Source of the DNA: Lytechinus pictus
Lineage: Eukaryota
NCBI RefSeq assembly: GCF_037042905.1
Contig: NC_087252.1
Location: forward strand, 4,218,001-4,282,000
Direction: 5' to 3'
DNA length: 64,000 bases
The notes under the pieces were generated by a model that did no database searches, was not told the origin of the DNA, and saw only the letters and a program-made list of their open reading frames with translations. Below are positions 5,873 through 64,000 of this stretch, piece after piece. The position numbers and the translations under genes are program-made. Each line of letters begins with the position of its first letter. Positions within the stretch are counted from its first letter, which is position 1.

Positions 5873-5906
<34 letters not shown>

Positions 5907-5959
5907 GGTGGTGATGATGATGATGGTGATGATGATGGTGGTGGTGGTGATGATGATGG

Positions 5960-5991
<32 letters not shown>

Positions 5992-11900: not shown

Positions 11901-12078
11901 GCCAAAGTGACTAAAGATAGTATTTATGAAAGATGGATGTCTTTAGAAAGATTATCAAACGGCCTTTGCTCACCTCACGATGATATATGGGCGTATGGAG
12001 TATTGGTATGGGAAATTATGACGTATGGTAAGAAAATATTACCCTTATCATTTGTGATTATCTTGATCCTTATTATTG

Positions 12079-12115
<37 letters not shown>

Positions 12116-17590: not shown

Positions 17591-17968
17591 ATGATGATGC
17601 TGAAGTGGACACTGATTGTGGGTGTATATTCCCTCTCATTGATAACGAGCGCAGAATCTGGTAAGTATATATATTCCAGGCTAATATAGTATTTAGCAAT
17701 GATACAAATAACTAATTTATCTACCAACTAACACATGTCACATGTTCTGCATATAGGTCGTGTTATTTTGTGGGATTTAGTGATCGATAAAATTAATAGA
17801 TAAATCAAATGAATGCATGGTAGAACTTTTCCCTCTAAAATGTGGCAATTTCCGTTATACTCTGGGATTTCCAAATTATGACTCATGCACCATGATGTAA
17901 AACAACTAATAGGCATAATCGATGCTACTGCATTTACTGGCTACTTCATACTACTAATACTACTGCTT

Positions 17969-21600: not shown

Positions 21601-24386
21601 ATAACATATAGACTTATGTTTTTTAAATGAATTATAGATAATCAAAATTACTAAGAAAATATAGTTCTAACAAGTATGATCTACTACCAAATCATTATAA
21701 CATTCACAATTTGAAGGAAAAGGGTTTTCATCATAAGCACCAAGCAGACTGCTAGAAAATACCTTACAGGGAGGGGGGGGGGGGGGGTCACATCCGGCCC
21801 GTGCCTCCCCCTGTAGAGAGCTATAATAACAATTTGTAATGTAAATATGCCGTTTCTACCGAAGTGTACCCCACCCCCTTTTGAAAGTGAGGATTTTTTT
21901 GTTTTGCTTGTCAATTTTTCCGCGGACAAAATGACCTTAGATTGTAGGTGAAAACCTTTTTTATTTAATTTTGTTTGTTTGTCAAATTTTCATCTGGAAA
22001 ATGTGCCTCCCTTTTGGAAAATCCTGGATCCGCCCCTGCTTACAGTAGTTGTTTAAACAGTTTAAACAATTGTTTGAAATCTAATACAACAAAGTTAATT
22101 TGTTAATATCTAATCCTCAATAACTTCAGCATTGCTTTTAAACTTTTTAACAAATACTGTAAGGTTCATGTGATAATATCAGCATTTGATGTTAAACAGA
22201 GTTTTTACTGGGTAATAAGAATTAAACATGGATGCAAGCCCAATTATTATAATGAATGTTCATGCAAAAAAAAAAAAATCTTCCTTTTCTATGTACATGC
22301 TTTTTACCGCAGAATGAACTTTGGTACGAACAGAACAAGAACGGAAATATAATTTCCGAAACCTATTGTAAATATCCAGTAGGAAAATACATCAGTATAT
22401 GATACATATTATATCATTATGTGCAAGTATTTCCTGCATAGTTCAGTAGTATTTTGTTGTTGTTGACTTTACAGACACATCGATAATAGATGACAAACTA
22501 AGGTCCACGATTTATAAACAAAAATAAAATGTTATCACTTTGAAATGGATATTCCGTTGATACATAATATAATTTCATTGGATTTTATTTAGTTTATTTA
22601 TATTTGCTGTCTTTTGTAAAACCTTTTTTTCTTTTACAAATTCACGTTTTCCAGGAGAATTCGAAAATCCCGTGCTGTCCCAAAATCCATGTGTTTTCCC
22701 GGGGTTTTCCGTATCTTGGGACAAACAAGATAAAGAAAATGGGAATACTGACTTATTAATTTCTTAGACAAAAATAAAAGAAAATAATTTGTTTATAATC
22801 ATTTTGGAATGTGGGGGGGGGGGGGTAAAAACTAAATGGGAAATGTCGTAAGCCTAGAAAAAAACAAATTTTCACTCATGATCGTCCTTCTTCACCCTGT
22901 CAATTTTGCAGCCCTTGTAGTTACCACGAACCTAACCGCAACAGCTTACAAGGGCAGAAGTATAACCCTCCCCTGCCGGTTCGAGGGTGAACCGACAGCC
23001 GTCTACTGGTACAAGCATAACCGGACTGCACCCGACGCTGAACCCAAAGTTCCCGTGCAGTTCTTTCAAGGAAAGGTGTTCAATGAAGAGGAACCGCGGT
23101 TCAACATGACCGCAGATTATTCGATGGTTATATCGGATATCCGGATCGAAGATGAAGAGATGTATTCATGCAAACCGGTTTTAGAAGACGATTCGACAGG
23201 AGAAAGTTTCACAAATCTAACTGTCATAGGTAGGTTTGATTGATACGTAACGTTCTAATAATGTCAATAAAAACAGAAAGTAGTGTGGAAGAGTTTCAAC
23301 GAATCACAGATTACTCTTAATGTTCACCATTCTCTATCATTATTGTATAGGCCTGTCATATAGGGATATATATATATATATATATATTATAGGCTATTTC
23401 ATTGGCAGTATTATCGAAATTTGATTAAATTCAGTGCCGACTAAAACGACTTATCTGTCAAAAATATCTACATTATATTTCAATTGAAATTAATTTTGTT
23501 TGAAAACAATGTTGTTCTGTCGATTGAGTCTGTTTCCTGTTTGGGCAACCTTTGGAATTTATTATAATCTTTTGTTCGAATCTGAGTCATGAATGATCGT
23601 GGTTATCTGCATGGTGCATGCACTATTGGTAACACGACATTTGCTCCTGCGACATTTGCTCCGGGTTTAATTTTGTCTAAGATGTAGGGTAAAGTTAGGG
23701 GTATGGTGTTAAACCAAGGGTTGAAGTTTGTCATTCGATTAGTGTGTGGAATTTAGAGCGGAGAAATTGTCGCCGGAGCAAACGTCATGGAACCGAACTA
23801 TTACTTATATTAGTAGGCCCTAATGGTTATCAATGAAATCACTGCTCTAGGGCGTTCAAATTCAATCGTAAATCATATTCTTTTCCTTCAGAAGCAATCT
23901 AGCATTCTTACGTTGGAAAGCATTTAACGTAAAACAAAAATAGCACTTACTTAAGATCTTCATAAACGGTCTATGATCTATGATTGCAAGTGATAAGTTA
24001 TTAATCGAAGGCTCCCAATTGCTCTTTTCACTATTTTTGGGAAACTTAGAATCTCATCACACTATTATTTATTTTCAAAAATTGTTACCGTTATGTAACC
24101 TTTTACTTCTTCCTTCTGTTATATTTTTTGTAGTATAGTTATGCCTTTTAAGAGTATTGTCAGCATTATAAAAATCATCATGTTTATTATCATTACTGTC
24201 TTTATTATTATTGATATTATAGATTACCATTATAATTATCATTACTACACTATAACATGAACTGAATTATTGATATCATTATTATTGTCATCGTAGTTAT
24301 TATTATTATTATTATTACTATTATTATTATTATTATTATTATTAGTAGTAGTAGTAGTAGTAGTAGGTCTACTACTGCTACTGCTG

Positions 24387-24786: not shown

Positions 24787-27700
24787 TCACCATCATCATC
24801 ATTACTATTGGTACTTGCATTATAACAGCCTTAGCAGACCCCCTCGAGCCAGTCGTCCCGGACTGCAAGCCAACCGAGCCCGGTAAGTGCGTATATGAAG
24901 TAGTAGGAGTAGTCACGGAAAGTTTTGAGCTCAGATGCCGAGTCGACGAGGTGAAACCTGCCGTTACACTATCATGGACGGCTCAGGATGGGACGGAGAG
25001 ACCATCGGAAGAAACTCCTTCAGGCCCCGATGAAAATGGACTTTTTAGTGTTGTTTCAGTGTTTACGGTGAGCAATATAGACCCCTACATGAGGCAAACA
25101 GAGAAATATACTATATATTTAGATAAGTATTGGAACTGTAGTTAAGCAATTTAAGTAATCAAATCTGATGAACTACTTAGTATCTTTCTCATAAAATAGG
25201 CACATGTGCATGATGTGCTAAAGCTCTATACCAGAGGTTCTCAATTTACGACCCGCGAAGCTTCTCAATCTGGCCCTTTCTAAATCATTTTATGTTACAA
25301 TATTTTTTTTTTCTCTTTGCCTCTTCCTTGAGGATTTATTGTTTCAAAATATTTACATATATACATATTTACATAGGAATAACTTTTTTTCAAGAGTCGA
25401 ATGATATAATATTTATAACAGGAATTACAATATATCAATAATTTTCTTGACCTCTAATACACAAAATTGTTTAGATCCGTAATGATTCAAATAAAACTTC
25501 AAATATGAAACAAATTCCGTGATCAATCTCTCATTGCTATGATTTAGATTCTGAAGGTTGCATTTTACATAATGATTATAAACTACAAACTGAGCAACAT
25601 TGATCGTCAAATTAATAAGTTCAAATTTTGGGTTTTCTATTTTATACCCAATTAACAATGTTTTCATAGTTATCACCATTTCTTCTTTGAAAATGAAATA
25701 AATCATCCTCGATATGATTTTCCAATAAACTTTAATCTTTTTGCAAAAAAACAGAAAATGGCCAATGGTCTCGATTTCATTACAGATTTCGCATTGATTT
25801 GTATTTACAATTTTCCACTTGAACAAATTGTCTCTAGAAGGTAATATTTTATGTAACAGTCTGAAATTGAATTGCTTAATTCTGTTATCTTTTATCTTTT
25901 TGAATTTAAAATGAAGGATATCTTTCCAAACTAAATTTTCTGGCAATTTTAGTTGTTTTCCCCAGATGTCCAAAATATAAAAATCAACCTTCTTTTGTTG
26001 TAAAAACAACACATAATATTGTTTTGCTCTGGTGCAAGTTATATTAATACGTTCACCAACAGATGTATCAATTTCTTCTTGTTCTGAAGACTCATTTTGC
26101 TTTTCTTTCATCGTACTTATTTTTTTAAGCCAATGAGCAGGAAATGCTTTTTTTAATTTTAAAAATCTAAAACTAAATACTAAATTATCAACATCAAAAA
26201 AGTTTCTAAAAAATGATATATCTTTCCATTTACCTTTATATACAACTTGTTTAACATATAAAATACCAACTTCTTTCCATTCCTGAAAATTTAAAGGTTG
26301 TCCATTTATTGTAATATTACTATTATTCCATAATGTTTCACGATATATATTTTCAACATTCTGCTCATTTAAATATCGTAATTGAGCCCATGTATATAGA
26401 AATTCAATATAAAACATTGGTAAACCCTTTTTTCGACAAAGCTTTAACATGTGTTTTGGATGACAATTCATTTGAAAACAGTAGGGGATTTCTCCTATGT
26501 AACTTAACCAAAACGAGAAAAGTGTTTTCCAGACTGCATCATAATTATTAAAAAAGGAATTTATCCAAGACAATATAATTGATTTTGATTTCGAATATAG
26601 ATCGATCATACCAAGACCACCTTCAACTATCGGTCTGACACAAATATTACGTTTAACTTTTTCACGCTTTGAATTCCATAAAAAGCAATACATTATCTTA
26701 TGTAAACCCTTGCATATATAGTCTGGCATTGGTATAACCGAACCAACATAAACGATTTGAGGCACAATTAAACATTTTATAATAATTATTTTACCATAGC
26801 ATGTAAGCTGTCTCATTTTCCATGTTTTTAATATGTTATTGACCTTTTCAATTTTCCCTTCCCAATTTAGCTTTCGTATATGCTCTTCATTTTTTCCCAC
26901 AAATATTCCTAAATACTTAACAGGATCATCTGTAAAATCGAACTCGCTTCTTTCTAAGTTAAATATCCCTATTTTTAACATCTTTGTCTTATTCCAATTT
27001 ACTTTTGGACCTGCAATATTACCGAAATTATTTATCTCTTTCATAACATTATGAAGGGAATTAATCGAATTGATAAATATCGTCGTATCGTCTGCGAACT
27101 GTGTTATTTTTATCTCTCTGTGTGGTAAGCATAAACAATTTCCTGAAATATCTATTCCTCTGATTTCATCATTTTCTTTAATACGAATTGCTAAAATCTC
27201 TGCAACCAAAATAAACAACAATGCTGATAATGGACACCCTTGTCTTACACCTTTATAAATATGAAATGATTCTGATAACCACCCACGCTGTAGTACTCTA
27301 CCGTGAGCATTTTTATATAACATCTTAATCCAATTTATAAACGATTCCTTAAACTTCATCCGCTTTAATGTTTCAAACAGAAATGAGTGGTTCACATTGT
27401 CGAATGCTTTTCGAAAATCTAAAAAAATTATAATGCCACGGGAACTTTTAAATTTACAATAGTCAATAATATCTTGAACAAGCCTAACATTTTCGGATGC
27501 CGATCTACCTTTAATAAATCCACATTGATCAGTTGAAATAATTGATGATAAAATTTTCTGTAAACGCATCGCTAAAACCCGAGCTGCAATTTTGTAGTCG
27601 ATATTGAGTAAAGATATTGGTCGCCAATTGTCCAGAGATCCCCTATTGCCATTTTTGTATAATAGAGTAAGAACTGACTGTCCTTGTATAAAAGAGAGTT

Positions 27701-30700: not shown

Positions 30701-33700
30701 ATTATCACTTTCACTCTGTCTTCATGACGAACGAGGTAAATACGCCATAAGTTACGTATTTGCTGGATACCTGATATGTTAGTAGGTTCTATTATCTTGA
30801 CTAACGACATGTACAATTCCTCACCCGATATTTGTTTTGTACTCACATTTCGAACATCCTCTGATTTAACAAAAACGGGTTTAGTTCCACTTGCGTTAGC
30901 CATTTTTAGAGTGAGACTGGGTGTGGCTTTCCGGAATCTCAGCTAGATTTCTCCCTTTCTCCTCAGAAAAATTCACTCCAAAGCGTCTCAGATTATATAA
31001 TTTACTTTTTCCTTCAATCTTGTTCCAAATACACAACCTGATGGCTTATCAGTTTTCCGATGATTTGCGATTTTAATTCTCAATCTGAGAGGGTGACAAA
31101 ATTACGCCTTGACGTTGAAATTGCGCCCTCTAAACTCATGTTACAATATGAAATATGCCTTAATATGATCGCATTTGTGACCATGCAAGCAACCATGAAA
31201 AAAAAATGATAGTCCAGACAATTTGACTTTTAATAGTAATAATAATAGCTGGATTTATAAAGCGCTTTTTGCCTGAGGATACAAAGCGCTGCTACTATTA
31301 CCCCGGCTTTAGCTCGAGCTACCATCACCGGCGCTCAGTGCATTCAAGGAATTACTCCTGCCGGGTACCCATTCACCTCACCTGGGTCGAGTGCAGCACA
31401 GTGTGGATAAATTTCTTGCTGAAGGAAAACACGCCATGGCTGGGATTCGAACCCACGACCCTCTGTTTCAAAGGCGAGAGTCCGAACCACTAGACCACGA
31501 TGCACCCATTTTAGCAAAGTTCAATGAATTTTGAGTCGTATCTGTCTGTACTACGTAGTTTATGATTTGATGTTATGAAAGATAGTAACAAGCCATTGCA
31601 CATATTACATCCCACAGTTGGATTTAAACGTGAACGTGCAGATGATACTAGTGGGATTTGTATATTTTCTACAATGAACATGTTAAATAATTCATACCAG
31701 AGCACCTTGACCAGTAAACATCTTGCACCAGTTCATTCGTCTGGCAATCACTCATTTTGTACCAAGGTTTCAGCAACTTGTTGTTCACTTTCCCACTGAA
31801 TGGAATTGATACAAATTAAGAGAAGCTTCAATTATTAGAATCTACAACAGCCCTGGTATACAAACTTGTAAATGATCCTTTCACTACACCTGTGCCCTCA
31901 GTTCAAATATTTGTTGAAACTGACATTTATAAGTTTTGAAAATACAACTTTCTTTAATGATTACTACTGAATATGGTTGCATTTTGTGTATTTGCATTAA
32001 CATGGTTATGGCTAAGACAATAAAATAAAAGATGACAGAAGAATATCACGGCCCAGTTTCCCAAGACGTCAACGGTGGCATGGGCTGACAACACTCCAAA
32101 AATAATAATTGCTCACAAAACAATACGTCATCACGGTCCTGAAGTTTGGAACACTTTGCCGAATAACATCAAACAAGCTACATCTCTTTTTTTCCTTTAA
32201 AGCTTTGTTAAAAAGGTTTCTTGTATCAAAGTATTTGTAAAAATCTCACCTGCACGTGCACCCACATCTGCACCACTTCACCTGACCCCTTTACCCTCTC
32301 CCCCTTTTTTCTTAACATTTCAAATAATTATGTGACATCATTATTATAGACCCATGAATTTTTCTCTACAATGGTTTTCATGTAGCTGCCTTCCTCTGGC
32401 TGCTATTCTCTCAAGCATTTTGCTTATGATAGCTAGCCACTGCATTTTATTTTATATATTATTGCTTACATGTATATCTATGTAAATTATTCTTCTATTA
32501 TGTAATCGTCGCAATTTGTAATTATTTCATTTATTTTTGTATTTCTTTATATTCATTATGATTACTGTGTTTCATATATTGAATTTTCAATAAATGCAGA
32601 AACACCTGCAAAAAAAAAAAAAAACAGAAATTTTCGACTCATTTTCGGGGGGAATAATAGAAAAAAAAAAGAGGTCGGGGAAAGAAAAATAATCCCCCTT
32701 TTTGCGGGTGAGAGAGGGTCCCCCTTATATATGTTTATATATTGACCAAAATTTAAATGACTGATGTCACGGCTAAATCACATTTTACCCACCTTTACCC
32801 TTTTTTTCTCTTTTAACAACATGCAGGTATTTCGAGGCGAGATAGGGGAGACCTTTGTTTGTAAAGCCACTGGTGATAGTGTAAACGGAACATCAACATT
32901 ATTGGTAACAGTAAAGTATCCTGAAAGTAAGTTAATTAAGCTCCATTGTATTTTTTAAGTTTTGACCACCGTACCGAGAACCAAGAGTTCAAATAAACCT
33001 TTACCATGTATACTTTTAACTTTAAAACAGCAAATGCGGACAAAGGAAGGGAAGGGGGAAAGCTACCGTTTCACGTCTTTTAAAATAAGGGTTTGGATAC
33101 TACTTCGTTCTGACAGCGATCCGTATTTAATACCTGTACACTCTAAAAAATGTTGGGCAACATACGGTCCACACAACAATTGGTTAAAACTTTATCCAAT
33201 TCTGGGTAGTTTTACACCAATAATATGTGCTTTGGGTGAAAACTACACAGTATTGGTTGAAAACTACCCAGAATTGGATAAAGTTTTAACCAATTGTTGT
33301 GTGGACCGTATGTTGCCCAACATTTTTTAGAGTGTAGATGAATGCTAAGATGTTACATCGCGACAGTATAATTAAAATTCATGACATTGGCGTAATGTAA
33401 ATGGTATTTAGGTGGCAGTCGCTGATGTATGCATAATTGCGAGAGATCAAAACATTTTGTGGAAATATTAGATATTTGATGTAGATTTGATAGGTTACTA
33501 AATGCAATTTTTGCCAGTAGGGTGATCTTAAATAATTAGCTACCTTTGCCGCCAATATTACATAATATTACATAAAATGCTAACAACAGATAGAGTAGAC
33601 GGTCACGCTGCTTGCCTCCATGAGCAGTTGAGGTGCGCATAAACATTCCCGTGGAACGCCCTGCGCAAAGTCAGAACTATCACCCTTTTGATTTTAACAT

Positions 33701-36700
33701 TCATTTTCGCAGAAGTTTAATTCATAATCGAATGTTGGCTTATTCTATTTTTCTTTCCATCCCGTTACTTTATTACTTTTCTTTTCTTTTCTTTGTTTAT
33801 GTTTTATTTTCTCTTCTTTTCTTTTAATCGACAGAAAAAGGCCTCTCTGGTGGAGCGAAAGCGGGAATTGCAGTATTTCTAATTTTCCTCATAGTCATCG
33901 TCGCAGTTGTTGCAATCGTCTATATAATGTGGAAAAGTAAGTGAAAATAAAAAAAAGGGAACATTATTTTTTTTCGGAAAAACATGACATTACATAATCT
34001 TTGAAATTTACCCCTAATTTAATACATTTGTTTAGTTTATTACATAAAGGCCGTCTTAAGGAGATTTCGATTTGAGAGGCAGAGTGGCAAATCCCATTTT
34101 GGAGTAAAATTATGTTATATTCAAAGGGTTGCCATTTTGTCCATGTGCATGCATAACAATATTCTTGCAAATGTTACCTAAAGCGATCATTACTTGACAT
34201 TTTTCAAATACTCGCTAGCCACCTCCCCCCATACCCTCGTCAAAGTAAATTTTACAAGTTCTTTGAAGTGCAGTCATTGCTGTTGACGCAATTGGGAATT
34301 ACAAAGAAAAAAATAGAAAGAGTAACACTATCATGACTACACACGTGGAAATTGATGGGTGCATGGATGATGGGTATAGGTAAATATAACTTAACTTTGA
34401 AGAAACTGCGATATATGTGAATGGAGACTATGTGAAGGGGGATGCAACAAATTTAAACTAATAAGAGCTGAGCGCATGTAAAAAGAGAGTAGCTGTTAGT
34501 ATGAAAAATCGTTTTATTTATGACGTCACAATACAGAACGGAAGAATCAGAAGCCGGAGAACTACCCAGACCAGATGCAGCTCTTAGCCCCATTTCAGGG
34601 TAAGAAGACAAGATCATGTTAATATAATACTCGTTCACTTCTGGAAGTGATGACATGCAATTAACACCACGTGTTACACCTAAAGTCGTATTCGAACTAG
34701 TACTATTATCATTATATTAAAAATGACTGGTTTGATCGTACGATTTTAGAAATAACTTGAGATTAAGTTTTCACCGACGGCAATTTACAGGCCACTCAAA
34801 TGGGTGAAATGTATAGTGATAAATTATTTGTTATATCTTGCCAATCTATAATGAGTTTCCATCACAGTGGTGTAATCAAATCTCACTAATGATACAAGGA
34901 TTATAGAAAATAATCATGTATATTTGGACCGTGGTTCCACATCAATGCTGAGATGTTATTTGAGAGAGCATGATATATACATGTATATATATATATATAT
35001 ATATTTCCATGGAATCAAATTGTAAGCGAAGATATTTTGGATAGCACATCACTAATGGAAAGAGCGCAGTGTCTCACAGTGTATGCAGTTTGAAAAACAG
35101 TCATATTGTAAAATATTGTAAAGTGTAAATAGCATCTTCAACACACCGATTCACTCTTTACTGGCATCCACAGTGTGTGATTTATCTTCACACTGTAAAA
35201 TCTGAGCCTTTGACAGTGTGAATCACATCTTCACATTGTCTGCTTTGTGAACACACTGACCCGTATTCTGAAGTCAGGTTTAACTTAGACCATGCATGGT
35301 CTCACTCTGTGCTAAAATTATGGAAAGCCAAAAATGTCAAAATTTTGTTTTCATTGTATATTTCTCATGTGCTCTTTCCTAACTCGAGAATGGCAAAGAA
35401 AGCTATCTCAAGTTTTCCTTCCGAAACTGTTAATAATGAACTGAGAGAAAAATGAGCTCATACATTGAAAAAATAATGTTAGATGTTTATGCCACTATTG
35501 GCTATCCATAGTTAAACCAAAAGTTCAAAGCAGAATTTAAATTAAACCCGACGTCATAAAACGGGTCACTATCTATATCTATTTTGAATACTCGACACTT
35601 TATAACTCTCCACAGTGTGAAATCGTGTTCCCACTGTTGAATTTGATGATTAATAGTGTAAATTCACAAAGTTCATTATGTGAGCACACTGTGAATACAT
35701 TGTGAAAACTATTAGTATAGAACCGTCCACAAAATGAAAATTATTTTCACAATTAATTGAAGAATGTTGACAGTGTGAATTAGACCTTTACACAATCTTC
35801 TATGTAATCACACTATGTGGCAATGTGCTATGTCCAAAATGGGTATAACGCGCAATTTACTTTTGCTTCTCCAGGGGACTTCAACGAACTGGCCGAGAAA
35901 CTACGGGATTACAAACCCGGATCATTTTCCAACTTGGAGAAAAAAGAAGACCGAAGTTGGCCGAAGGTGACCCGATTAGGAGTATTCGGGGTGACGCATG
36001 CCGGGAAGTCATCTCTTGTGAGATCTCTCACCTATTCTCTGAAAGGTAACAGATCAAAAGCAAGCTTGGTGATCATAACAAAATCCATTCCATGATTTTC
36101 ATTTTTTTTAAATTCATGTTAAAATTCAGTTTGTGAGATAATAGAGCTGAAACATTTTTACTAGATTAATCAATTTTCCCCTTCTTGTCAAAGCTCCACC
36201 AATCAAAATGTCTGATCTGGACCACGTGACACGGAGACTTTAAATAAGCTATAGGTTTGTATATCGATTCTAGTTGGTTGATATTGGTATTTTTATACAA
36301 TATACAATGCAACCATTGTCCTGATTGGCCTATGTTACATTGAAATGGATCGCAAATGTTTATGTTACCGGGTCCAATATTCCAATCAAATGAAAACGAA
36401 ACCTTTGTCTATATTTAATGGCCCGTATTCTGAAGTCAGGTTTAACTTAGACCATGGTCTAACTCTGTGCTAAAATTATGGGGAGCCAAAAATTCAAAAA
36501 ATCTGTTTATATTGTATGTTTCTTATGATTACTATTTTGTTTCATTTTGCTTTCATAATGAAGAAAAATACTTCAGTTATCATTCCCAGACAATTACGAA
36601 CAATTTGGGTGCCATATGAGTTAATAAATTGGATCAGGATGCATACTGTAAGGGGATTTGTGCTCCAATTGGCTCTCCATATTTAAACCACAACTTTAAA

Positions 36701-45119: not shown

Positions 45120-45936
45120 CAGTGCGTCCCAGAAAAAACGAAACCGAGATTTAGCGATGATTTATCATAACTTAATCACAAATACAATAGACAAATGACC
45201 TACCAATGTAAAGCTTAGAATCTCCTCTTTCATCTGATATTACTTAGATTATTCCTCATTCACGCATGAGTGAGCAAAAACAATTTGAAGAAAGGATACC
45301 AAAAACTCATTTGGCGGGGGGTATCTGAATTTTAAAAAGAAAATCACATGCCTAAAAAGTTCAATATCTGCTCTTTAATTTGATACCTTAATCACAAAAA
45401 ATGGTCAAGAAGTAAAAAAGTTACGTTCCCTCGAAACAATGCTTGTATTTCCATAATTTCATTAAATAAACGTGTTTTCACCGGTTTTCCACAGAAGCTA
45501 TGGCATGGTTAATAAAAGACTTCATGCATGGCTAATCGTCAACAAAACGGAGTGTCGAGTGAGTTTGAACGCTAGCCTGTAAAACCTCTTCATTTTATGA
45601 AATGATTGAAATTCAAGCCTTATTTCAAATAACCAGAACTTTCTTATTTCTTGACCATTTTCTGTAATTGAGGTATCAAATTAAAGAGCAGATATTGAAC
45701 TTTTTAGAAATGTGGTTTTCGTTTTGAAACCCAGATACCCCCCGCCAAATGACTTTTTGGTATCCCCTCTTCAAATTATTTTTGCTCACTCATGCGTGAA
45801 TGAGAAATAATCTAAGTAATTTCAGATGAAAGAGGAGATTCTAAGCTTTACAATGGTAGGTCATTTGTCTATTGTATTTGTGATTAAGTTATGATAAATC
45901 ATCGCTAAATCTCGGTTTCGTTTTTTCTGGGACGCA

Positions 45937-45939
<3 letters not shown>
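45120..45939. mobile_element. Tc1/mariner-type MITE with ~300-bp inverted arms inserted in (TA)n
   Basis: CAGTGCGTCCCAGAAAAAACGAAACCGAG ... CTCGGTTTCGTTTTTTCTGGGACGCACTG; (TA)n on both sides. Confidence 0.9.
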
Positions 45940-46033
<94 letters not shown>

Positions 46034-46410
46034 ATGTACATGTATGTATGTATATATTCGTTTTTAGTTTTTATATTGCATGCGCAATTAATAAATGAGC
46101 TGAATTAATGGTTTTATTGTATTGATATGCTAGCTAGCGTACATAATGTGTTATGGTCTCATGTGTTGTGATTAATCTACGATTCGAGGTACGAGCATTT
46201 TATTTGTTGCAAATATATATATATGCGATATTGATGATGATGACGATTTAAAAATGAACTCACTCATGCGTGAATGAGAAATAATCTAAGTAATTTCAGA
46301 TGAAAGAGGAGATTCTAAGCTTTACAATGGTAGGTCATTTGTCTATTGTATTTGTGATTAAGTTATGATAAATCATCGCTAAATCTCGGTTTCGTTTTTT
46401 CTGGGACGCA

Positions 46411-46493
<83 letters not shown>

Positions 46494-46720
46494 ATGTACA
46501 TGTATGTATGTATATATTCGTTTTTAGTTTTTATATTGCATGCGCAATTAATAAATGAGCTGAATTAATGGTTTTATTGTATTGATATGCTAGCTAGCGT
46601 ACATAATGTGTTATGGTCTCATGTGTTGTGATTAATCTACGATTCGAGGTACGAGCATTTTATTTGTTGCAAATATATATATATGCGATATTGATGATGA
46701 TGACGATTTAAAAATGAACT
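45787..46720. repeat. Direct tandem duplication, ~470 bp x2
   Basis: 45787-46260 is repeated at 46261-46720, apparently identical except for (TA)n length. Confidence 0.9.
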
Positions 46721-52753: not shown

Positions 52754-53357
52754 ATGTTCACTCTTAATCTCAGGAGAACGTGTTTCATCTTCATTGTCTT
52801 TCTGCATTGTTTTGTAGTTTCATCGTGTGAGTATTGACTTTTTTCTCTCATTCTTCTCATGTTGATGGATAAAGGAATCTCTATTAATATTATGTGCCCC
52901 TTTTCCTCATGATGAATATTAACAGCACAATACAGAGGAGCCTCGTCGAGATGAGAAAATATACTTTTGTTTTCACGATTTTTTTTAACCTTTTTCTTTA
53001 AGTTAAGGCATGAGAAATAAACATTCTTTAACATATCTTTTTAATAGATATGGATAAATTGTATTTATTATAATGAAAACAAGTTTGTAACCAAAGACTG
53101 AATTACACGAATCTGTACAGAGTAAAAATTATGTACATTTTGCAAACAGGTAATAAAGATGCCTAATACCCCTATGTTGGGCATTGATTATGATACATGA
53201 TCAATTAGAACTTAAAAAATACAATATATCCATAATTATAGGATATAATAATAATAAAACAATAGGGTTTGTATAGCGCACGTATCCACCTTGGTTGGTG
53301 CCCAAGGCGCTCATATATTACCCCGGCTAAGCTAGTCTACATAATACACATTATGCA

Positions 53358-53440
<83 letters not shown>

Positions 53441-56400
53441 TAATATAAATTACGAAGAGGTTTTTTTTTTCTGGTTGCAAAAGGGGTTACATCATTTTTG
53501 GACCTTTCCAAGAGAAATCAGGTTTTTTAAATCTCCCAGCTATATTCTTATGAGAAACTAAATTGGCATGATGTACTACCCTATCATGTGAACATAACAT
53601 TGGGTGTAAAAGAAATATACGTGTCTTCATTTTTTATATACATTATTTTTTAAAATATAGTTGTGGATCTAACCCCTTTTGACCAAACTGAAATGCAACA
53701 AAAGCGTGGATAGAGATAAAGATAATGTTACAACTGCCCATAATCGTGTAATAGCTGTGGGGCGATTGTAACACTCGGTACACTTGACTTCTTATTTTGA
53801 AATGATAATAGCTTCTGTTAATCGCTAAACTTAACCAAACCCTATTCAAACGTCAAGCCTAGAATTGTATGATTTCGTTTTATTTAATGGAGTTGACAAG
53901 ACTGTCAAGTTTGGAAAATGTTGCTACAATGTTATTGTCCGCGGTCTCCCCTACTCTTGAAATGGGTTGGTCAATATTGTAACTATAGTATCCAATTCTA
54001 TTAACCAACGTTGGGTCGCATTAGTCTGAAGGCACATAACCTCATTGAGACTGATTTAAAAGTGTGTCTCAAAGCAAAGACTAGCTTAAATACAAAAAAT
54101 GATATTTCAATTCAGCGAGCAACAGGTCCATCAGTACACAAGGTGTTATAGGCTGCACCTTCAGACCCTTATGTTGAAGGGTTTGCAAAGCAGATTAAGG
54201 TTTACTGACACTTTTTGCCTAAACACATTGGTCATGAAATTGGCCAACTTTAGGTAGGTGAAAATTGCCCAATATGTGTTGTTCCTCGTTTGAATCGCAT
54301 TTATAATTAGAAATCAGGTTAAAAAAATAACGATTAATTAAAATCGGACTCGTGAGAAGATAACCCCCCCCCCCCCCCCGAAACGCATATTTGGCCTACT
54401 AATGCGAATGCGTCGGAACTGTGCAGAAGTTAGTATTTTGACTACTCGAAAATCGACAAGATCGATATACAGTATACCTAAAAAACAATTTCCCGTAACT
54501 ATTCCATTCCTGGATTATAATTCTACTTAGTTGTATTCTAGATAGTTCATGATAAATTTGCACACGCAAAATGTTTTGGTGAAAGGCATGCAAATCCATG
54601 TAAATAATATAGGCAATGTAACGTCTGTGGGGGAATCCCAGTGGGAATTCCCATTAAAGCTTGCCGTGTACTTGTAAACACCAAAGTTGTGAAAAGCATA
54701 TGTAAGGGGAATATAAGAATGAAGGGTAGGAAGAGAAATGAAATAGCTTACAAAAGCTAGCATACAATGGGATCTAGTGGCGGATCCAGGGGAGGGGGGC
54801 ACATCCAAATTGTTTAATGTAGATATGCCGTTTTTATCCAAGCGTGCCCCCACCCCCCCCCCCCGTTTGAAAGTGAGGTCCATTTTTTTCTTGCTTTTCA
54901 AATTTTCCCCGCAGACGAAATGACCTTAATTTAAAGTGAAGACTTTTTTCTTTTTTTTTCTTGTCAAATTTTCCGCGGACGAAATGACATTGAATTTTTG
55001 GTAAATACTCATGTTTTTTTTTTTTTTTTTTTGGGGGGGGAGGGCTCCGTGTCTGTCAAATTTCAATCGGGAAATGTGCCCTTTCCCCTGATAGAAAATC
55101 CTGGATCCGCCCCTGACGGTATCCGAAATATATAGAATTAAAGAAAATCATTAAAAAAAAGTGAACGAAAAAAATTCTAACATGATTGTTTTCCTTGAAG
55201 CGGAAGCTTCAAGGGACCCGGTTGTGTTCACTTTGAGTGCCAAGTTACTATCAGATTAAGTAAGGATTTCTTCACAAGGTGAATCTAAATTATACAGGGT
55301 GTTTCAAAAAAGGGTAACCGAAGTTCAAAGGTCAGCTGTATTAAAAAATGCATAATATAGTTTTTTTTTATTTCTACTCTACATAAGTTCGTATCTCATT
55401 ATTTTTAATTTGGCACCTTGCTTGCGTCACAATTGTAACGGGTCACATAGTTCTGGTCCATCGAAAGCGAAGGGTTCAAAACCGACTTTTTCAAGTTTTA
55501 ATGTACATGCACGAAACCCACTTTGTTGTAAGGTTTTGGTTTCATCACAGTTTTTGTTTTAAATTATATTGAAATGCTATCCCCTCTGTAAACGTTTTGT
55601 GAGTGACTGGCATTTACATATCAACTGCCTAGCTTCAATCTCTGTTGAACAAGTTCATAGCTATCTTTAGCACCAACACCTCCAAAGTTTTCACACTACC
55701 ATCCTTGTCGACGCTGCACTTCTCTTCTAATCATTGCATTACAGGATTGTGATCTTATGCCAAACAATGTGCTCAACCAAATTTTCATCTAGACACATGT
55801 AACATTCATTTGCAAAGAAAAACAAATCAGAAGGGTAACATTTTCCCTAAAATTTGCAAAGAAAAACTCTGAAGAGACTAAAACCTTACAACAAAGTGGG
55901 TTCTGTGCATGTCCATGACTTGTGTATTAAAGCCTAAAACTTGGAAAACGTAGGTTTTGTACCCTTCACCTTTAATATAGCATAACTCTGTGACCCAGGA
56001 GATTAGTGAGGTAATCAAGGTAACAAAGTTAATAAAAATTTATGAGTTACTTGATTATGTAGATTAAAAATCACAAGAATAAATCATGTATTCTTGAAAA
56101 AGCTGACCTTTGAACTTTGTTAGAAACAGTAATACAGTGTACAATCTAGTAAACCAAAGTAGGTTTAAGTAAGTTATATTATAACATAATCGAAGGATGA
56201 AGGATTTATGTACATTGTTTGCACTGTGTACTAGTTTTAATTGTTTAAAATGGCATTTAGATTATTTAATCGTAGTTACGACCGAAAGAAATTTACGAAT
56301 ATGGTGAATAAAGACGAACTTTTGAACTTTTTTGAACGATCTATTAAAGGAAACTATTTTTTTTACCCTGTCAAATGTTTTCAATCATTCATATCTATCC

Positions 56401-59400
56401 AGGCATATTTGTATTAATTATGGATCATTTCCTATAATCAAGCTTTCGTGAAGACTGCAAATGAAGACCGCAATTATCATTCAAAGAGGTGCACAAACAT
56501 ATATGGGTTGTCTTGAGTAAATAGATAAACATCATCTGGGGGGCGTTTCATCAACAACTGACAACTTTCCTGGATTCTCTTTGGTTGAGAAGCACTGTTG
56601 ATATACTAACTGTCGGATAAAATAGGACTTGTGGGATAAAACGTCTGACAAGTCCTTTCATGAAACGCTACCCAGATGTTCGATGACCAGAGACATAATT
56701 TATGATTAAATTTGAAACGATTCGCCCTTTCTATATGCTAAAAACCCCGGAATTTACATTTTATATGTTTCTTTTTCTAGATTGATCTAGAGCGATCATT
56801 GTTATTGACACTTAAAGTAATTATAAATTGATCGAACTTTATTTCGACGCATCAATGCAGATTACGAATTAATTTTGTAATAAAGAAAACTTATCCTTAA
56901 ATATCCGTTTCATTCCATCCGATGCTTGAGGAATGGTTTCATGTTAGATATATGAAGCAAAATATTTAAAGCGGAAATTCACTATGATGATAATATACTG
57001 GTGAATGTGTGATGAAAATCTATCAAAAGAATAAGAGAGAGATTAGTTTTTAATGTTCTTGCCTTTGTGACGTCATATGCGAGCATTTCGATTTTTAATG
57101 GAATATGAGGAATACAGTTATTTTCCGAAAGGAGGGGTTATAAAATATTGTGTCTGATTTGTCTGCAAGCACAGCTATTTGACAGTTTAACCAATAACAG
57201 GTCTGGAGTAAAGACTAGTCTCCGTAAACTCTGTCTGTGTGAAATAGAGCCAGCCACAGTAAACAGTGAATCTAGTCTCACTCTTACAGACACTGTATTA
57301 CACATCATGTGGAAACCAAGGTTCTGTGCCTGTAGACTAGTGTTTGATGATCCATCACACATAACATTTTTCAAAATCATGAATGAGGAAATTGCATCAT
57401 TTTGAAGTTATATCACACAGCATCGAGAAGCTGCTAGTCTGTAAATCACAAAATAAACACTACAGAAAATGTCAAGAAATTCCATCATTCATTGACGGGT
57501 TTTCATCAGACTTTCACCAATGTTCTCTTGTAGTCTTCCTACTTTTATTAAAACCAACTTATTATCAGAGTGAATTTCACTTTAAGGTATACGCAAGTGA
57601 ATATCTGCTCGGGCCTGGAAAGCACTTCATGAAAACAGTGTTGTAGTGCCTTGATGCTCGGCCTTGGCCTTAAGGCCGCTTTTCAAAGCCTTGGCCTTGA
57701 ACATTCAAGCCTTGGCCTTAAGAGTGCCTTGGCCTTGGCCTTGAGGATTTTGAGCCTTGAAATTTTAAGGCATTTTCAAGGCATTTTCAAGGCTTTTTCA
57801 AGGCATTTCATATTTTGTACTTTCATTTGTTTTTATATAAGTAGGTACAAATGTTTAAATTGTTCTGTATATCTAATGACACTAGGGGTCAATACTACCT
57901 GTCAGCAGTACAGTGCGTATCAAAAAAAGTTTACACTTAGAAAAAGTCCTGTAAAATTATACATTTGTAATATCCTGAAGATTTTCCCACATTTTAACAT
58001 TGGTACAGATCCATTTAAGGAAATGACGATATAACTGTCGAAAAATATTTCCACTTGAGTGAGCACCACTTACTTTTGAAAAGTTAGTGAAAAATGATTT
58101 GCGCAGAACTTTGAAATAGTTATGAGAATAAAAGGAGACCTTAATCAAGAAGAACACGTTGAATTTAGCTAGTAAAATTTATTTGAAGATATCTTTCACC
58201 TTTTTTAAACTTGTTTCCTTGCCCAAAACACTTCAAAGAGTGCATTGCGCCCAACCTCACTTCCCCACAAACCAAGGCCATCAAGACGATATTTGCTTTA
58301 CACTGAGCTGTGATTTTCATGAAATGGCTAAGGCTTGATTTTCATCTTGTTAATCATTGTCAAGCTTGGGAAAAGTGTGGAGAAACAAGTATTAAATGAA
58401 AAATGAAATGTAAACCCACTTTAAATGATAAAAACTTAGTGAAAAAATGCTGGAGATGTCTGATGTAAACTTTTGTTCAGATTCAGCTATGTCCTTAAAT
58501 CCAGTTGGCACAAAAAGGGTTAAGTTTGTGCTTACTAAGTGTTGAAATTTCAATTCGGGTGGCAAAATTGTTACAAAATGCTTGAATGTATCCGTTTTAT
58601 CTAAATTGACTAAAAGTACAAGGGAAATGTATGAAAAATGTTTCGCAGGGTAAGTTTGATTTCGCCCGTTCCCCTTGACACAGCGTGAAAACGAGCATTT
58701 CTGCGCAAACAGATTTCTGCGAGCTTTACAAAAACGGACAGTGCTCACTCAAGTGTAACATTCTGTCAAAACTTTTACTTTCATTGGATAGATGAGACCC
58801 AAACCCAAGATCATATGTGAAAAAATTACCCACATGTTGTATATTTTTTATTTCCTAGGGCTTTTTCAAAGTGTAAACTTTTTTTGATACGCACTGTATA
58901 GCAGTTGCAGCAGCAGTAGTAGTACATGTAAATGTACTTAGCAGTGCCATCAATTTCAATATTTAAGAATTATCATCACATAATTAAGTAACAAAGAAAA
59001 CAGAAGTGATGAAAAATAACATTATTCATTAGTAATATGTTGTTTAAAAATGATGATAATGGCAAAATCAATGATAATGAAAATGATAAAGATTATAGTG
59101 ATTTTATGACTGGAATAATTCTGACAGATCTGACTGCAATTTTGACAACAGTTTTCATGAGAATAGCTACATGTAACTCTAAAGAATGACAACAAGGTTG
59201 ATTTCTATTCCATTAGGATTTTCCTTGTATTATCTTTGACCAACAAGAATGTTTCAAGTCTTAATGATATTCTGAAAAGTTTCGGTAAACTTGAACACAA
59301 CAGGCAAGACTGAGGAATGGGAAGAGAGATAGAGAGAATTAAGGGGAGGCTGGTTTGGCAGAATATACTGCTAAATCAGTTAATATGTTGATACGCAGTA

Positions 59401-62400
59401 CATCTAACTTTTTTTTTTTTTTTTTTTTTTGGGGGGGGTATAGTGTCTCAGATTAACAAAATAGAGTAAAAAAAGGGTTACTAATTTTTAATCATATGGT
59501 TCTACAATGAATTTAATTTTCACTACAGTTTCAAGGAAACAATCAAAATATTTGTTTTTGTGTCAGTGTGGTTTCATAGAAAACCCTATTTCATAAATTT
59601 AAGAAATAAGATTTAACCTCCCCCAACTAATGGTGTGGGGTGTGCCCCGTTTATTTTATATCCTTTTGAATATAACTTTATTTTTTATCATTCTTTATTC
59701 CGGTTTTTAGAGGTAAATTAATAGAAGATACAAGAAAAGAGAATTGAAATTTAATATTGGTTGTAAGCAGAAAAAACATGAAAATTGACAAGAGTCCTAA
59801 GAACTAATCATTTTCAGGTCAGCATTTGAAAATTTTAACTTGCGCTTGTGCTCTCTTGCCCCCCCCCCCCCCTGAAAAATTCCCTGTAGGAAAAAATGCC
59901 CGTTTTCCAAAATCGAAAATGCCCTTTTTCCAAATCAAATGTGCCCTTTTTCAAAAAGAAATACCTTTTTTGTACTAAAACATAATACATTTTAGATTTA
60001 AAAATCACCAAATTTTGGATCGCGCTCGCATAAATTGTTAAGTAAAGTACTCATTCTGTTCCCATTTCCAAAAAAAATGCGTAGAATGTCCAGTTTTCAG
60101 GTTAGAATATCACAAATTTTTGAGCTCGCGCTTTGCGCTCGCATTATTTTATTGGTGAGTTTAATGTATCCTATTTATGAGTCACTAAATGCAGTCCAGA
60201 ACAGCTTTCTTTTCTGGTCAGGAAAATTTCCGCTCGCGCTTCGCGTTCGCGTGAATTCTTTAAGATGCACATCTTTTTTTCATGATTACAAAAACAGCTC
60301 GTAATATTTAATTTTCATTTCTCATTACACGAAATGTCCGGAAGTTTGAGCTCGTGGTTCGTGCTGGCAATATCTAGCAAGGCTGCCCTTTTAGCGCCAT
60401 AATTGACCGAAAAGCGAGTTTTAAAACTTAAGAATTTATTTTTTTTTCAAAACAGCTCGCTCGCTACGCTTTCTGGCAGAAAAGTAAAGCCTAAATCAAA
60501 ATATATGTCTTATCAATTAGAAATCACTTTAAAAAGGCTTTCATTTTGACTTAAAGGTGTATTTTTAGGCTTTGACATCCCCCCAAAACACGTTCTGCCT
60601 CCCCTGTCACAGGGAGTGGAGAAAGACATACGTTGATAATGGGCATGCCAGGATCAGACGACCGTTGTAATGATAATAATTGCAATGTAAATCGCCTAGA
60701 AAAATAATGTATTAAATGTACAAAGGTAACTATATTATTATTTTAATGTCTAAATCTATCATGAAATTATTTTTTGTTTTACATGTACAAGGTCAAACTT
60801 ATCGCTCGCTCACACCTTTAATAATACATTTTGCCCTGTGTGTCATGTCTGCCGCCTAAGCATTGTTGTCTCATTGTTCCGTATACATGTATTGAAAGTT
60901 TGAAATGCCTTGGCCTTGGCCAAGGTATTGAAGCCTTGGCCTTGGGTATTAAGGCCTTGGCCTTGGCCTTGGAGGTTTGAGCCTTGACTACAACACTGCA
61001 TGAAAATCGATTTATCTAAGATAATAATAATTAAATCTGTCCTGGATTGAAAAAAAATCTTCAATTTCTAAACTTTCCCCTTTACATCAAAATACCGAGA
61101 AAAGTAATGGAGATAAAGTTTAGGCATATCGCCGTTCTTCGCAATCTTCGCTTTTATTTGGAGAATTAGACACCAAAGAATGTATTTTGTAAAGCAGTAG
61201 TTGTATATGCAAGGACAATACCATCAATTTTCTTACAAAACCAGTAAACCATAAGCATCTGTGTAGGCCTTTTTCAAGAAACAGTGGATATCATGGCCAG
61301 GGTCTAACTCTCGGTATTTAATTAAGGAACAAAAAACTCAATCGATTTACTTTCTCCTTCAGCATTTACAGTGTTCACGGAGCAATCGGTAACAGCAGTG
61401 AAAGGGGGAAATGTATCCATACCATGCAATTTCACCGGAAATCCAACTTTCGTCTGGTGGTGGAAGCATGATTCAACAGGAGCCACAGACGACGACGTAA
61501 CACTCGTAGCCCGCGAGTTCGAGGGGATTGTAGAAGATGCAGGAATTGACAGGTTCAATATCACGAAGTCTGAAAATGATTACCGTCTGACGATACGTAA
61601 TGTGTCTCTGCTGGACGAGACCACATATTCTTGCCAAGTAGAACTCGATAATCATGAAGATGAGAGGGGCTACACGAATTTGAGTGTTCTAGGTAAGTTT
61701 TAAGTAGAACAGTCATATAACTCATATTAATAATTGTAATAATATTTGGATTTTATATTTACTTGTTTATATTATTTCCAGAGGACACAAAACACTCTTA
61801 TTAAATGTTAAATCAACATTTGAAAGATTGGAGAAGTGACAACATTTAAAAAAATGCCACTCCAACCTAGCATAATGTGACTCCAACATTTTACGTATTT
61901 GTTCGAATCATTTTAAGTGGTAAATGCAACATATAGAAAAGGTTTTGGTCATCTTCCAACATTTCAAATGTCGATATAACGTTTCATTTTTAGAGTGTAA
62001 GAAGTTTGATTTTAGAGTGAAAATGCTTGATCACATAGACCTACAACAACTTTTTTTATTTTCCGTCTTACCTTTTCGATTTGACCTTTTAATGAAACGT
62101 TTTATCCCCGTTTTTTTTTAAATACTCAGAATTTCACTCGTGTGTTTTATGATATTGTATTTAGGCCTATTCCATTTTATCTGACTCAATTCAAACATTG
62201 AAAATGAATTTTCAGGTTTGCCAAAATCTTTATCAAACTGTTTTTTATAACCTCTGCAAGCTTTGGCAGAGCCCCTGGAACCAGTCATCAAGTTATGTCA
62301 TGTGACAACGCCAGGACACTGTACTTACTTCATTGACAAGAACCCACCTGAGCAGGTGAACTTGGTTTGTGAGCTCCATCAAGTTCGACCCCCTGTAAAC

Positions 62401-64000
62401 CTTACCTGGAAAAAGATCGACGGCATATTGCGGGAAACTGATCCACCGCTTGTATATGATCAAAATGGACTCTACACCGTCTCATCTGTATTACAGGTTA
62501 AGTGACATAATGAAACAGTTTATGCTGTAGTCACATTCCCTCCACGGCCACCGTACGGCGAGTCCAAAAAAACGTTTTATTTAATTTTATTCAAACTACC
62601 TACATGTAGCAGGTACAAACATGTAAAAAAAGGCTGTTTTCAAGTCGCCGTTTGGCGACCGTAGGGGAAATGTGACTGCGCCATTACTACAAAAAAGAAA
62701 TCATTCGAGTTTAAACCAAAAGAGTTGAACATTAATTTGGAAAACATATGTTTCATGGTTTTTGAAGTACAAAAATTTATAATAAATATTCAAACTAAGT
62801 ACTGAAATTACCAAAATGAATAAATCCTATTAAGACAATTTGATGAATGGTAATATTTAGTCAAAGATATTCATGTTTATGCCATTCACTTATACATTAT
62901 CATGTACTTGTACTTTTTTCTTTTTGTCTGAATAATATGCCGTAAACTTGATATTTCAGCTTTCACAAAGTAAAAGTGTCAGAAATTAAATAGTATTCAT
63001 GCCGATGCTGCATTCTTTATTATCAGATATCCAGGTCCGAGTTCGATCATCAGTATAAATGCGAAGCGAGAGGACAGGCGGTAAATGGGGTCTCTTCCAC
63101 GACAGCGTCCTTTGGTAGTAAAACTACGGAAACCCCCCAAACAGGTACTATCCTTAACCCTGATGCAAACTTTTCAGGGTTTTTCATTTGATTCATTTAA
63201 TTAGTGACGCATTCTATTATTTTTCAAATTCTTGTTTGTTATATTGATTTTATCAATAACACGTAGTCCTACATTTTTTATCAGTTAAATCATAAGTGGC
63301 ATCTGGGAGAAGATGCCCTGTGTCGATTTATGAAGCAATGCAATATTATTTGGTTAAACAAACACAAACAAAGGCGTAGAAAGATGCGAGCGCGAAGCAC
63401 GAGCCAATTTTTTTTTATTTTTTTTTTTGGGGGGGGGCGGGTTAAGGTTGATGCTATTCTTGCCTGAAAACAGGTCCGGCAGTTATCATAGAGACCAGGG
63501 CTGCTCAACCAATAATAAACAAGGCTTTATCTCGAGTTTCATTTCAGCGCTCGTGCGTTCAAGGAATTAATCCTGCTGGGTACCCATTTACCTCACCTGG
63601 GTCGAGTGCAGCACAGTGAGGATAAATTTCTTACCTTAAGGAAAACACGACATGGCTAGGATTTGAACCCACGACCCTCTGTTTGGAAAGCGAGAGTCAG
63701 ATATATAATCCTTCATCAAAGGTTATACGTCTCATTCAGTAATAGCAAGGATCAACATTTTCACGAAAGGTTAGGCTACACGTCCACCAGACCCGACGCG
63801 ATTATCCAATTGAACAGAACAATCGCATTATATTAGTTCAATCAGACTGCTTACTTATTAAAAAAAATAAGACTTTTTCTTTTCATCTTGTCGTTCTATC
63901 TATTTCAGGGTTACATCCGGGATATATAGTTCTCATAACATTTCTCATATTAGGGATAGTCATCATACTTGTTTTAATCGTAGTGTTCTATCACATAAAG
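52754..64000 (+). CDS. Tandem paralog of the Ig-Ig-TM protein (5' part; runs off the window within the TM exon)
   Basis: Exons 52754-52826 (signal peptide MFTLNLRRTCFIFIVFLHCFVVSS, donor GTGAGT), 61363-61692 (IgV: IPCNF..VWWWKH..DETTYSC), 62261-62496 and 63027-63144 (LAEPLEPV..LVCEL..LTW..YKCEARG), 63909-64000 (TM YIVLITFLILGIVIILVLIVVFY). Same intron phases (1,1,0,1) as gene 2. Confidence 0.85.
53361..53437. repeat. (TA)n microsatellite
   Basis: Directly visible. Confidence 0.95.
54630..54652 (+). promoter_or_regulatory. Paired NF-kB sites in intron 1 of gene 3
   Basis: GGGGAATCCC (54630-54639) and GGGAATTCCC (54643-54652). Confidence 0.5.
54775..55115. mobile_element. MITE with (A)GTGGCGGATCCAGG / CCTGGATCCGCCCCTG termini
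   Basis: Inverted termini; related right ends at ~22020-22038 and ~38497-38514. Confidence 0.7.
55295..56140. mobile_element. Degenerate Tc1/mariner-like MITE
   Basis: TA|CAGGGTGTTTCAAAA start; inverted arms AAGTTCAAAGGTCAGCT / AGCTGACCTTTGAACTT and AACCCACTTTGTTGTAAGGTTTT / AAAACCTTACAACAAAGTGGGTT. Confidence 0.65.
57636..60998. mobile_element. hAT-type non-autonomous element, 3.36 kb
   Basis: TIR CAGTGTTGTAGT / ACTACAACACTG; 8-bp TSD CATGAAAA at 57628-57635 and 60999-61006; subterminal GCCTTG arrays at both ends. Confidence 0.88.
57911..58896. mobile_element. Tc1/mariner-type MITE nested in the hAT element
   Basis: TA|CAGTGCGTATCAAAAAAAGTTTACACTT ... AAGTGTAAACTTTTTTTGATACGCACTG|TA. Confidence 0.88.
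63522..63700 (-). mobile_element. SINE fragment (same family as 31236-31507)
   Basis: GGGTACCCATTTACCTCACCTGGGTCGAGTGCAGCACAGTG and TTTGAACCCACGACCCTCTG blocks. Confidence 0.8.

Follow-up and report, generated by a model that had tools for sequence, protein, structure and literature searches.

This report concerns a gene of the sea urchin Lytechinus pictus that begins near the end of a 64,000-nucleotide stretch of DNA (contig NC_087252.1 of assembly GCF_037042905.1, positions 4,218,001 to 4,282,000), which we call the window and to which all coordinates below refer. The gene, gene 2 in what follows, lies on the plus strand, and its first five exons, between 52754 and 64000, encode a signal peptide, an immunoglobulin (Ig) V domain, a split IgC domain and a transmembrane (TM) helix. 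An upstream paralog, gene 1, occupies 17591-42248 on the same strand. Exon 1 of gene 2 (52754..52826) carries the ATG and signal peptide and ends at a GT donor in phase 1; exon 2 (61363..61692, phase 1) encodes the IgV domain (Pfam V-set, E 2.7e-13) and is 100% identical to the protein model P0001; exon 3 (62261..62496) codes for the opening part of IgC, for which the whole protein gives a C1-set match at E 2.6e-5, and is followed by a phase-0 intron; exon 4 (63027..63144, phase 1) supplies the second part of IgC and a stalk; and exon 5 (63909..64000), the TM helix, is cut by the end of the window. All four introns are GT-AG, with phases 1,1,0,1.

The protein encoded by gene 2 is P0004 (541 amino acids). 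Its N-terminus is that of exon 1, its residues 1-283 equal the five-exon model throughout, exon 4 included, and residues 284-541 come from GTPase exons downstream, outside the window. A search with the IgV exon gave 3 matches among 134 candidates, with 100% identity to a Lytechinus pictus record, and P0004 sits in the same cluster. Contigs from runs X1 and X5, which belong to two studies, join exons 1, 2 and 3 with 0 differences; among the matches listed, support for splicing from contigs covers these three exons. Reads of run X6 on the IgV exon are in the sense orientation, as expected of a stranded library. P0004 itself shows a hydrophobic N-terminus, the V-set match already mentioned, a C1-set match of 24.9 bits (cutoff 21) and one TM segment near 259-277, so that by domain layout (signal peptide, V-set, C-type, one TM) gene 2 is classed as a type I V-C receptor of the Ig superfamily. 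Given the open frames, canonical splice sites, spliced contigs and full-length P0004, gene 2 is intact and spliced and encodes a single-pass protein, and on the same grounds pseudogene status is ruled out. The initial annotation had allowed that the downstream exons might be absent or frameshifted; instead, P0004 carries on into a complete GTPase domain. Two other L. pictus models resemble it. P0001 differs from P0004 at 5 positions in the first 360 residues and ends after the G1 motif of the GTPase. P0002, a second copy or haplotype, ends before the GTPase and has a TM exon in common with L. variegatus, being closer there to the L. variegatus protein P0003 (29/30). The two may be alleles, split models or a further copy.

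Gene 1 has 11 exons and an open model of 557 amino acids. Its signal-peptide exon (17591..17660, phase 1) is followed by the IgV exon (22912..23229; Pfam V-set, E 2.3e-10), the two parts of IgC (24829..25067, ending in phase 0, and 32827..32926), the TM exon (33835..33936) and six cytoplasmic exons for the juxtamembrane region and GTPase (34537-34599, 35875-36045, 36790-36948, 40220-40274, 40725-40795 and 41923-42248), with the stop at 42248. Compared up to the TM exon, the two genes agree in the positions of all four introns and in their phases (1,1,0,1), including the phase-0 intron that splits IgC, just as the initial annotation had it. All ten motifs that it had named as shared are present in both genes, and 7 of the 10 are unique to these two sites in the six frames of the window; the others have stray matches (TAxKG 1, WxKH 2, YSC 18), and with 18 of them YSC is by itself uninformative. 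Its estimate that roughly a third of the IgV residues match was also right. The IgV exon proteins are identical at 39 of 105 positions (37%), with an alignment score of 184 against a best of 12 in 1000 shuffles; under the same number of shuffles the first IgC exon gives 32/78 (41%; 144 against 14) and the second 11/33 (36 against 17). Signal and TM exons are no more alike at the protein level than shuffles, and the exons of the two genes show no meaningful similarity as DNA.

What lies behind the membrane is a GTPase. Residues 311-540 of P0004 form a P-loop GTPase domain (MMR_HSR1, E 6.6e-7), with G1 GLTGAGKS at 343, G2 at T380 and G3 DNKG at 396. At the G4 position, compared with the consensus [NT]KxD, gene 2 has THRD at 464, keeping the Asp with His for Lys; gene 1 has THAR and P0008, its counterpart in another urchin, THCD. 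P0003, a relative from L. variegatus, is built in the same way as gene 2. The structure predicted for the GTPase domain is a confident one, with a mean predicted local distance difference test (pLDDT) of 90 and a predicted template modelling score of 0.88. A fold search with this model ranked Toc33 first (Z 14.3, root-mean-square deviation 3.8, 202 residues aligned), though EngB, mitofusin and an Arl2-type chain lie within 1 Z of it and count as tied; septins and GIMAP4 followed at Z of about 12.5, and all 50 matches listed were GTPases or GTPase-containing entries. The full-length model of P0004 is poor (pLDDT 59), and its fold search gave antibodies and T-cell receptors only; sequence searches of the PDB gave Ig matches only, among the matches listed. 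By motifs G1-G3 and the modelled G-domain fold, the tail of gene 2 is classed as a P-loop GTPase of the TRAFAC type, with putative GTP binding and hydrolysis.

It is likely IFI44-like as well. In the ESM Atlas the tail adjoins a cluster named 'interferon-induced protein 44-like' (0.93, 179 features), and its motif pattern (G1, DxxG, THxD and (E)NY/F, together with a long helix at the C-terminus) resembles that of IFI44. IFI44 is soluble. It has a putative TLDc domain according to the sections of PMC5614904 available; P0004 has no TLD(c) match at E up to 0.1, and its GTPase is attached to an Ig ectodomain and TM helix. The initial annotation had left the cytoplasmic domain as either an IFI44-like GTPase or a swapped effector. 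The former stands for gene 2, with IFI44 kinship at the strength just given; a swap in gene 2 itself is excluded, as P0004 carries the GTPase and, in a profile scan, no NACHT domain; swapping is found in the wider family. Neither the gene 1 nor the gene 2 tail contains an immunoreceptor tyrosine-based inhibitory motif (ITIM) or a YxxL motif. Gene 1 (in 41923-42248), P0008, P0006 and P0051 end in an aromatic and basic C-terminal tail that could bind membrane, which gene 2 does not have. The THAR of gene 1 is without the G4 Asp. In three Diadema proteins (P0014, P0059 and P0081), monophyletic at 100/100, the G1 Lys is replaced by Arg and DxxG is altered; by sequence they are probably a pseudo-GTPase branch.

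A profile search with a limit of E 0.001 recovered 1118 proteins, and the best 150 of these were listed. We scanned 162 sequences with profiles seeded from top members and found an Ig ectodomain joined to a GTPase in 25, about 19 loci after collapse of duplicates. Nine family loci were seen in L. pictus, a lower bound given that one protein was taken per 50% cluster, so the pair is no set of two conserved single-copy genes; an old tandem pair within a multigene family, as first proposed, is supported. All named carriers of the Ig-GTPase combination are sea urchins: Lytechinus, Diadema and probably Strongylocentrotus. At least six family loci lie on one L. pictus contig of 42,376,555 bases, namely gene 2, P0007, P0013, P0156, P0161 and the adjacent gene 1; when 7 family proteins were compared with the window by tblastn, gene 1 and gene 2 were the only matches.

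The same ectodomain also precedes other tails, and here the suggestion of effector swapping is upheld for the wider family. P0007 (E 8e-17) and P0005 carry P2RX7_C, the P2X7 ballast; P0041, P0047 and P0050 carry NACHT, as does P0043 by a custom profile; P0013 has a Death-like tail; and P0011 and P0016 have tails that look coiled-coil-like by eye. Gene models from two Lytechinus species show the P2X7 tail, and those from two Diadema species show NACHT tails that are 66% identical to each other. The Diadema NACHT receptor P0041 and the GTPase receptor P0159 are alike at 70 of 110 IgC positions and 38 of 59 in the TM-juxtamembrane region, and then diverge. Relatives of the GTPase domain without Ig also occur (P0064, P0105 and P0144): two have tandem GTPase domains and one, from S. 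purpuratus, is soluble and has a coiled-coil-like tail.

How the tails came to differ was approached with trees. An unrooted ectodomain tree was built from 53 of the 162 rows, picked because their V-C unit is nearly complete. In it P0008 is the partner of gene 1 (support 99/97), and the clade that holds gene 2 (11 rows, 100/99) also contains members with P2X7, Death-like and coiled-coil tails. Four two-Ig NACHT receptors are nested within a clade of Diadema GTPase receptors (100/96). A narrower set comprised the 25 rows with an identifiable tail, setting aside short, TM-less and four-Ig rows. There a single clade of the 16 GTPase rows, a group set by domain content and chosen after the first tree was seen, is rejected (approximately unbiased test, p-AU 2.7e-117), and four changes explain the five tail states. 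An unrooted tree of 25 GTPase rows places gene 1, gene 2, P0008, P0006 and P0014 together (99/99) and keeps the Diadema group together. Because it broadly mirrors the ectodomain tree, it suggests that the GTPase was inherited along with the ectodomain and is the ancestral tail. The NACHT, P2X7-ballast, Death-like and coiled-coil tails, we infer, replaced it by exon shuffling. P0013 has the look of a mosaic: its IgV and first IgC part resemble P0009 (66% and 53%), its second IgC part and TM resemble gene 1 (71% and 59%), and the switch falls at the phase-0 intron. A topology test rules out gene 1 as partner of the left part (p-AU 8.5e-5) but leaves grouping of the right part with the gene 2 clade standing (p-AU 0.118); the test supports the left half only.

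The rest of the window can be described briefly. The phase-0 intron of gene 1, the one at which P0013 seems to switch lineage, houses an apparently intact retrotransposon of the class without long terminal repeats (non-LTR; 25425-30942, minus strand), with a 379-amino-acid zinc-knuckle frame and a 1317-amino-acid endonuclease/reverse transcriptase/zf-RVT frame. Upstream of gene 1, at about 5400-13300 on the plus strand, is a receptor tyrosine kinase gene with a TM exon and tyrosine-kinase exons; the same tblastn found no family-related ectodomain for it within the window. At 45785-46720 two head-to-tail copies of 460 bases, 97% alike, may be an assembly artefact at an (AT)n repeat.

The low identity of the two IgV domains had been taken as a mark of variable ligand binding, and this did not hold up. 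Between gene 1 and gene 2 the IgV (39/105, 37%), IgC (42/109, 39%) and GTPase (84/220, 38%) are equally diverged (Fisher p 0.90), and divergence specific to IgV is excluded for this pair, whose sequences speak of age and not of IgV-specific diversification. Each of the two is about as distant from the Diadema protein P0006 (IgV 39%) as from the other and Diadema split off about 250 million years ago, according to the available part of PMC7299941; on these sequence distances the duplication is therefore dated as very old. Gene 2 and P0003 are likewise even (ectodomain 86%, GTPase 84%, p 0.63). A faster ectodomain appears in one of the three pairs compared, gene 1 against P0008, which is probably from S. 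purpuratus: 51% for the ectodomain (IgV 54/105, IgC 64/109) against 81% for the GTPase (181/223 identical), p 8e-8.

What might such a receptor do? The closest studied analogue is AjNLRC4, a sea-cucumber Ig-TM-NACHT protein whose Ig part binds bacteria and polysaccharides, and which dimerises on infection and drives phagocytosis (PMC8699970, in the sections available). By analogy with it we think it somewhat more probable than otherwise that gene 2 encodes a surface immune receptor of an old urchin family, in which ligand would cluster the Ig domains and so switch a self-associating GTPase inside the cell. The V domain would bind a microbial or damage-derived ligand, the bound receptors would cluster, the tethered GTPases would associate and switch, and the output would be defence, such as phagocytosis or cell death. 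A two-copy prediction of the GTPase domain with GTP and Mg scored 0.55 against 0.01 for the best control, with contacts agreeing to at least 91% and pLDDT of at least 79; the mark is one reached by 21 of 30 solved pairs (7 of 16 in animals) and 0 of 23 monomers, and the pass may reflect the predictor's memory of solved GTPase dimers. The predicted interface is built from a loop at the N-terminal end, two helices in the middle and the helix at the C-terminus (P0004 residues about 324-329, 452-458, 472-493 and 525-539).

Several results weigh against this proposal. The predicted interface contains no G1-G4 residue and so, in the model, differs from the nucleotide-sandwiching type of Toc34 and GIMAP; self-association of the GTPase is supported by the prediction, nucleotide-gated dimerisation is not. 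Sequence searches brought up no protein named IFI44 among the best 5 of 7999 and the best 5 of 8000 matches listed. Raw RNA coverage is low, about 1.5x over the gene 2 IgV bin in X6 and 0 in X7 (6% of each run read). All domains have diverged evenly, both between gene 1 and gene 2 and between gene 2 and P0003. The family is modest, its 9 L. pictus loci seen falling far short of TLR, NLR or SRCR scale. The alternative tails are known from automatic gene models, and the Death-like tail of P0013 is a weak match (E 0.04). Four-Ig NACHT proteins, one from Holothuria leucospilota, match weakly (E about 1e-13 to 1e-10) amid generic Ig proteins. The immune role of every family member is one that we infer.

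Some of the same observations fit a nectin- or B7-like receptor for cell-cell recognition or adhesion, in development, the nervous system or allorecognition, whose GTPase links contact to remodelling of membrane or cytoskeleton with no microbial ligand. The V-C-TM layout has Pfam matches to C2-set, C1-set and butyrophilin-type domains, NCBI names two members nectin-2-like and nectin-4-like, gene 2 diverges uniformly across domains, a counterpart of gene 1 is conserved in another urchin genus, and mitofusin and septins are among the fold neighbours. The NACHT, Death-like and P2X7-ballast tails are, however, typical of immune and cell-death signalling, and the tails turn over by lineage in a family whose overall divergence is fast; we consider an adhesive role rather unlikely. 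The truncated models, and those that run into retroelement sequence (P0001, P0002, P0016 with GIY-YIG, and P0044), bear on a plainer account: the Ig-GTPase fusion is real, the family is small and ordinary and drifts neutrally, and most 'swapped' tails are gene models fused with neighbouring genes or mobile elements. Splicing is confirmed for exons 1-3 of gene 2 only, which leaves room for such artefacts, yet the Ig-P2X7 fusion recurs in the gene models of two Lytechinus species and the Ig-NACHT fusion, its tails 66% identical, in those of two Diadema species, and Ig-TM-NACHT has been demonstrated experimentally in sea cucumber (PMC8699970, as above). This account seems to us improbable.

Signalling could also run the other way. 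Butyrophilin 3A1 is the model for inside-out sensing, and the urchin tail might sense an intracellular change, in GTP/GDP level or through a viral or bacterial product, and alter how the Ig domains are displayed to neighbouring cells. Three of the tail types bind or may bind nucleotides (the GTPase, NACHT and the P2X7 ballast, which the available part of PMC7016195 describes as an old module, open to capture and perhaps able to bind GDP), and the degenerate G1 and G3 of P0014, P0059 and P0081 and the THAR of gene 1 fit binding or scaffolding better than catalysis. Gene 2 keeps all the catalytic motifs, however, and AjNLRC4, the sole studied analogue, signals from the outside in, so we give inside-out sensing only a slim chance. 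The outside-in immune receptor remains the reading we favour. Its broader version is more tentative, and we hold it possible but less likely than not: that urchins have a mix-and-match immune system in which one V-C Ig chassis and interchangeable effectors (IFI44-type GTPase, NACHT, P2X7 ballast, Death) recombine at shared intron positions, with the GTPase form a surface receptor switched by clustering and the membrane NLRs of urchins derived by tail replacement.

Several known systems can be set beside gene 2. AjNLRC4 and AjNLR-new are likewise echinoderm membrane proteins with Ig domains and a P-loop NTPase, and some members of the urchin family have NACHT tails; gene 2 has a GTPase instead of NACHT, one V-C pair and a short stalk. 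For AjNLR-new the group that described AjNLRC4 reports the opposite topology (PMC13133943, in part), which is at odds with a signal-peptide type I layout such as that of gene 2. In the ectodomain tree the sea-cucumber-type rows stand on long branches outside the urchin clade. One Ig-TM-NACHT protein in our set, P0143, has 1197 amino acids, the length given for AjNLR-new in that paper. Homologs of IFI44 belong to a cnidarian antiviral programme, induced in antiviral cells (PMC13319465), and are induced in infected trout (PMC12428285), as far as the available sections of both go. Chordate clusters in the ESM Atlas (scores 0.82-0.86, leads only) also combine, within a single chain, Ig and a GTPase of IFI44-like or GIMAP kind, as 'IFI44-like' with I-set and AIG1 (GIMAP) with V-set, and suggest that Ig domains and immune GTPases have come together more than once; the IFI44-like clusters have I-set where gene 2 has V-C. 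Toc33/Toc34, GIMAPs, septins and mitofusin, membrane-anchored self-associating GTPases, are the nearest solved folds of the tail, but at 12-18% identity, without an Ig ectodomain, and with the difference that the predicted gene 2 interface leaves out the G motifs. B7/butyrophilin and nectin receptors share the V-C-TM front end. Their tails are B30.2 or short peptides; that of gene 2 is a GTPase.

The 2006 inventory of purple-urchin immune genes reportedly lists a few V-C1-TM genes, an entry that our literature search did not find, and the family ectodomains may thus have been catalogued before. A full-text search, in which older subscription papers are poorly covered, found no published Ig-TM-GTPase receptor and no account of tail swapping in this family. 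The available portions of PMC13511894 and PMC8005160 contain nothing on the family, and the two supplementary files of PMC11688612 gave 0 matches to four locus ids or IFI44. The urchin immune families named in the part of PMC13511894 available (TLR, NLR, SRCR, Trf) include no Ig receptor that crosses the membrane once and has a GTPase built in.

Several things follow for the biology of these animals. The trees show a possible origin of membrane NLRs, with NACHT swapped for the GTPase tail behind the same ectodomain. The biochemistry of IFI44-type GTPases is poorly defined, and if the receptor signals by clustering, it would offer a ligand-controlled handle on them. The available part of PMC11688612 describes L. 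pictus as genetically tractable, which makes these claims testable. Members of the family are also plentiful in Diadema, which has suffered die-offs from disease.

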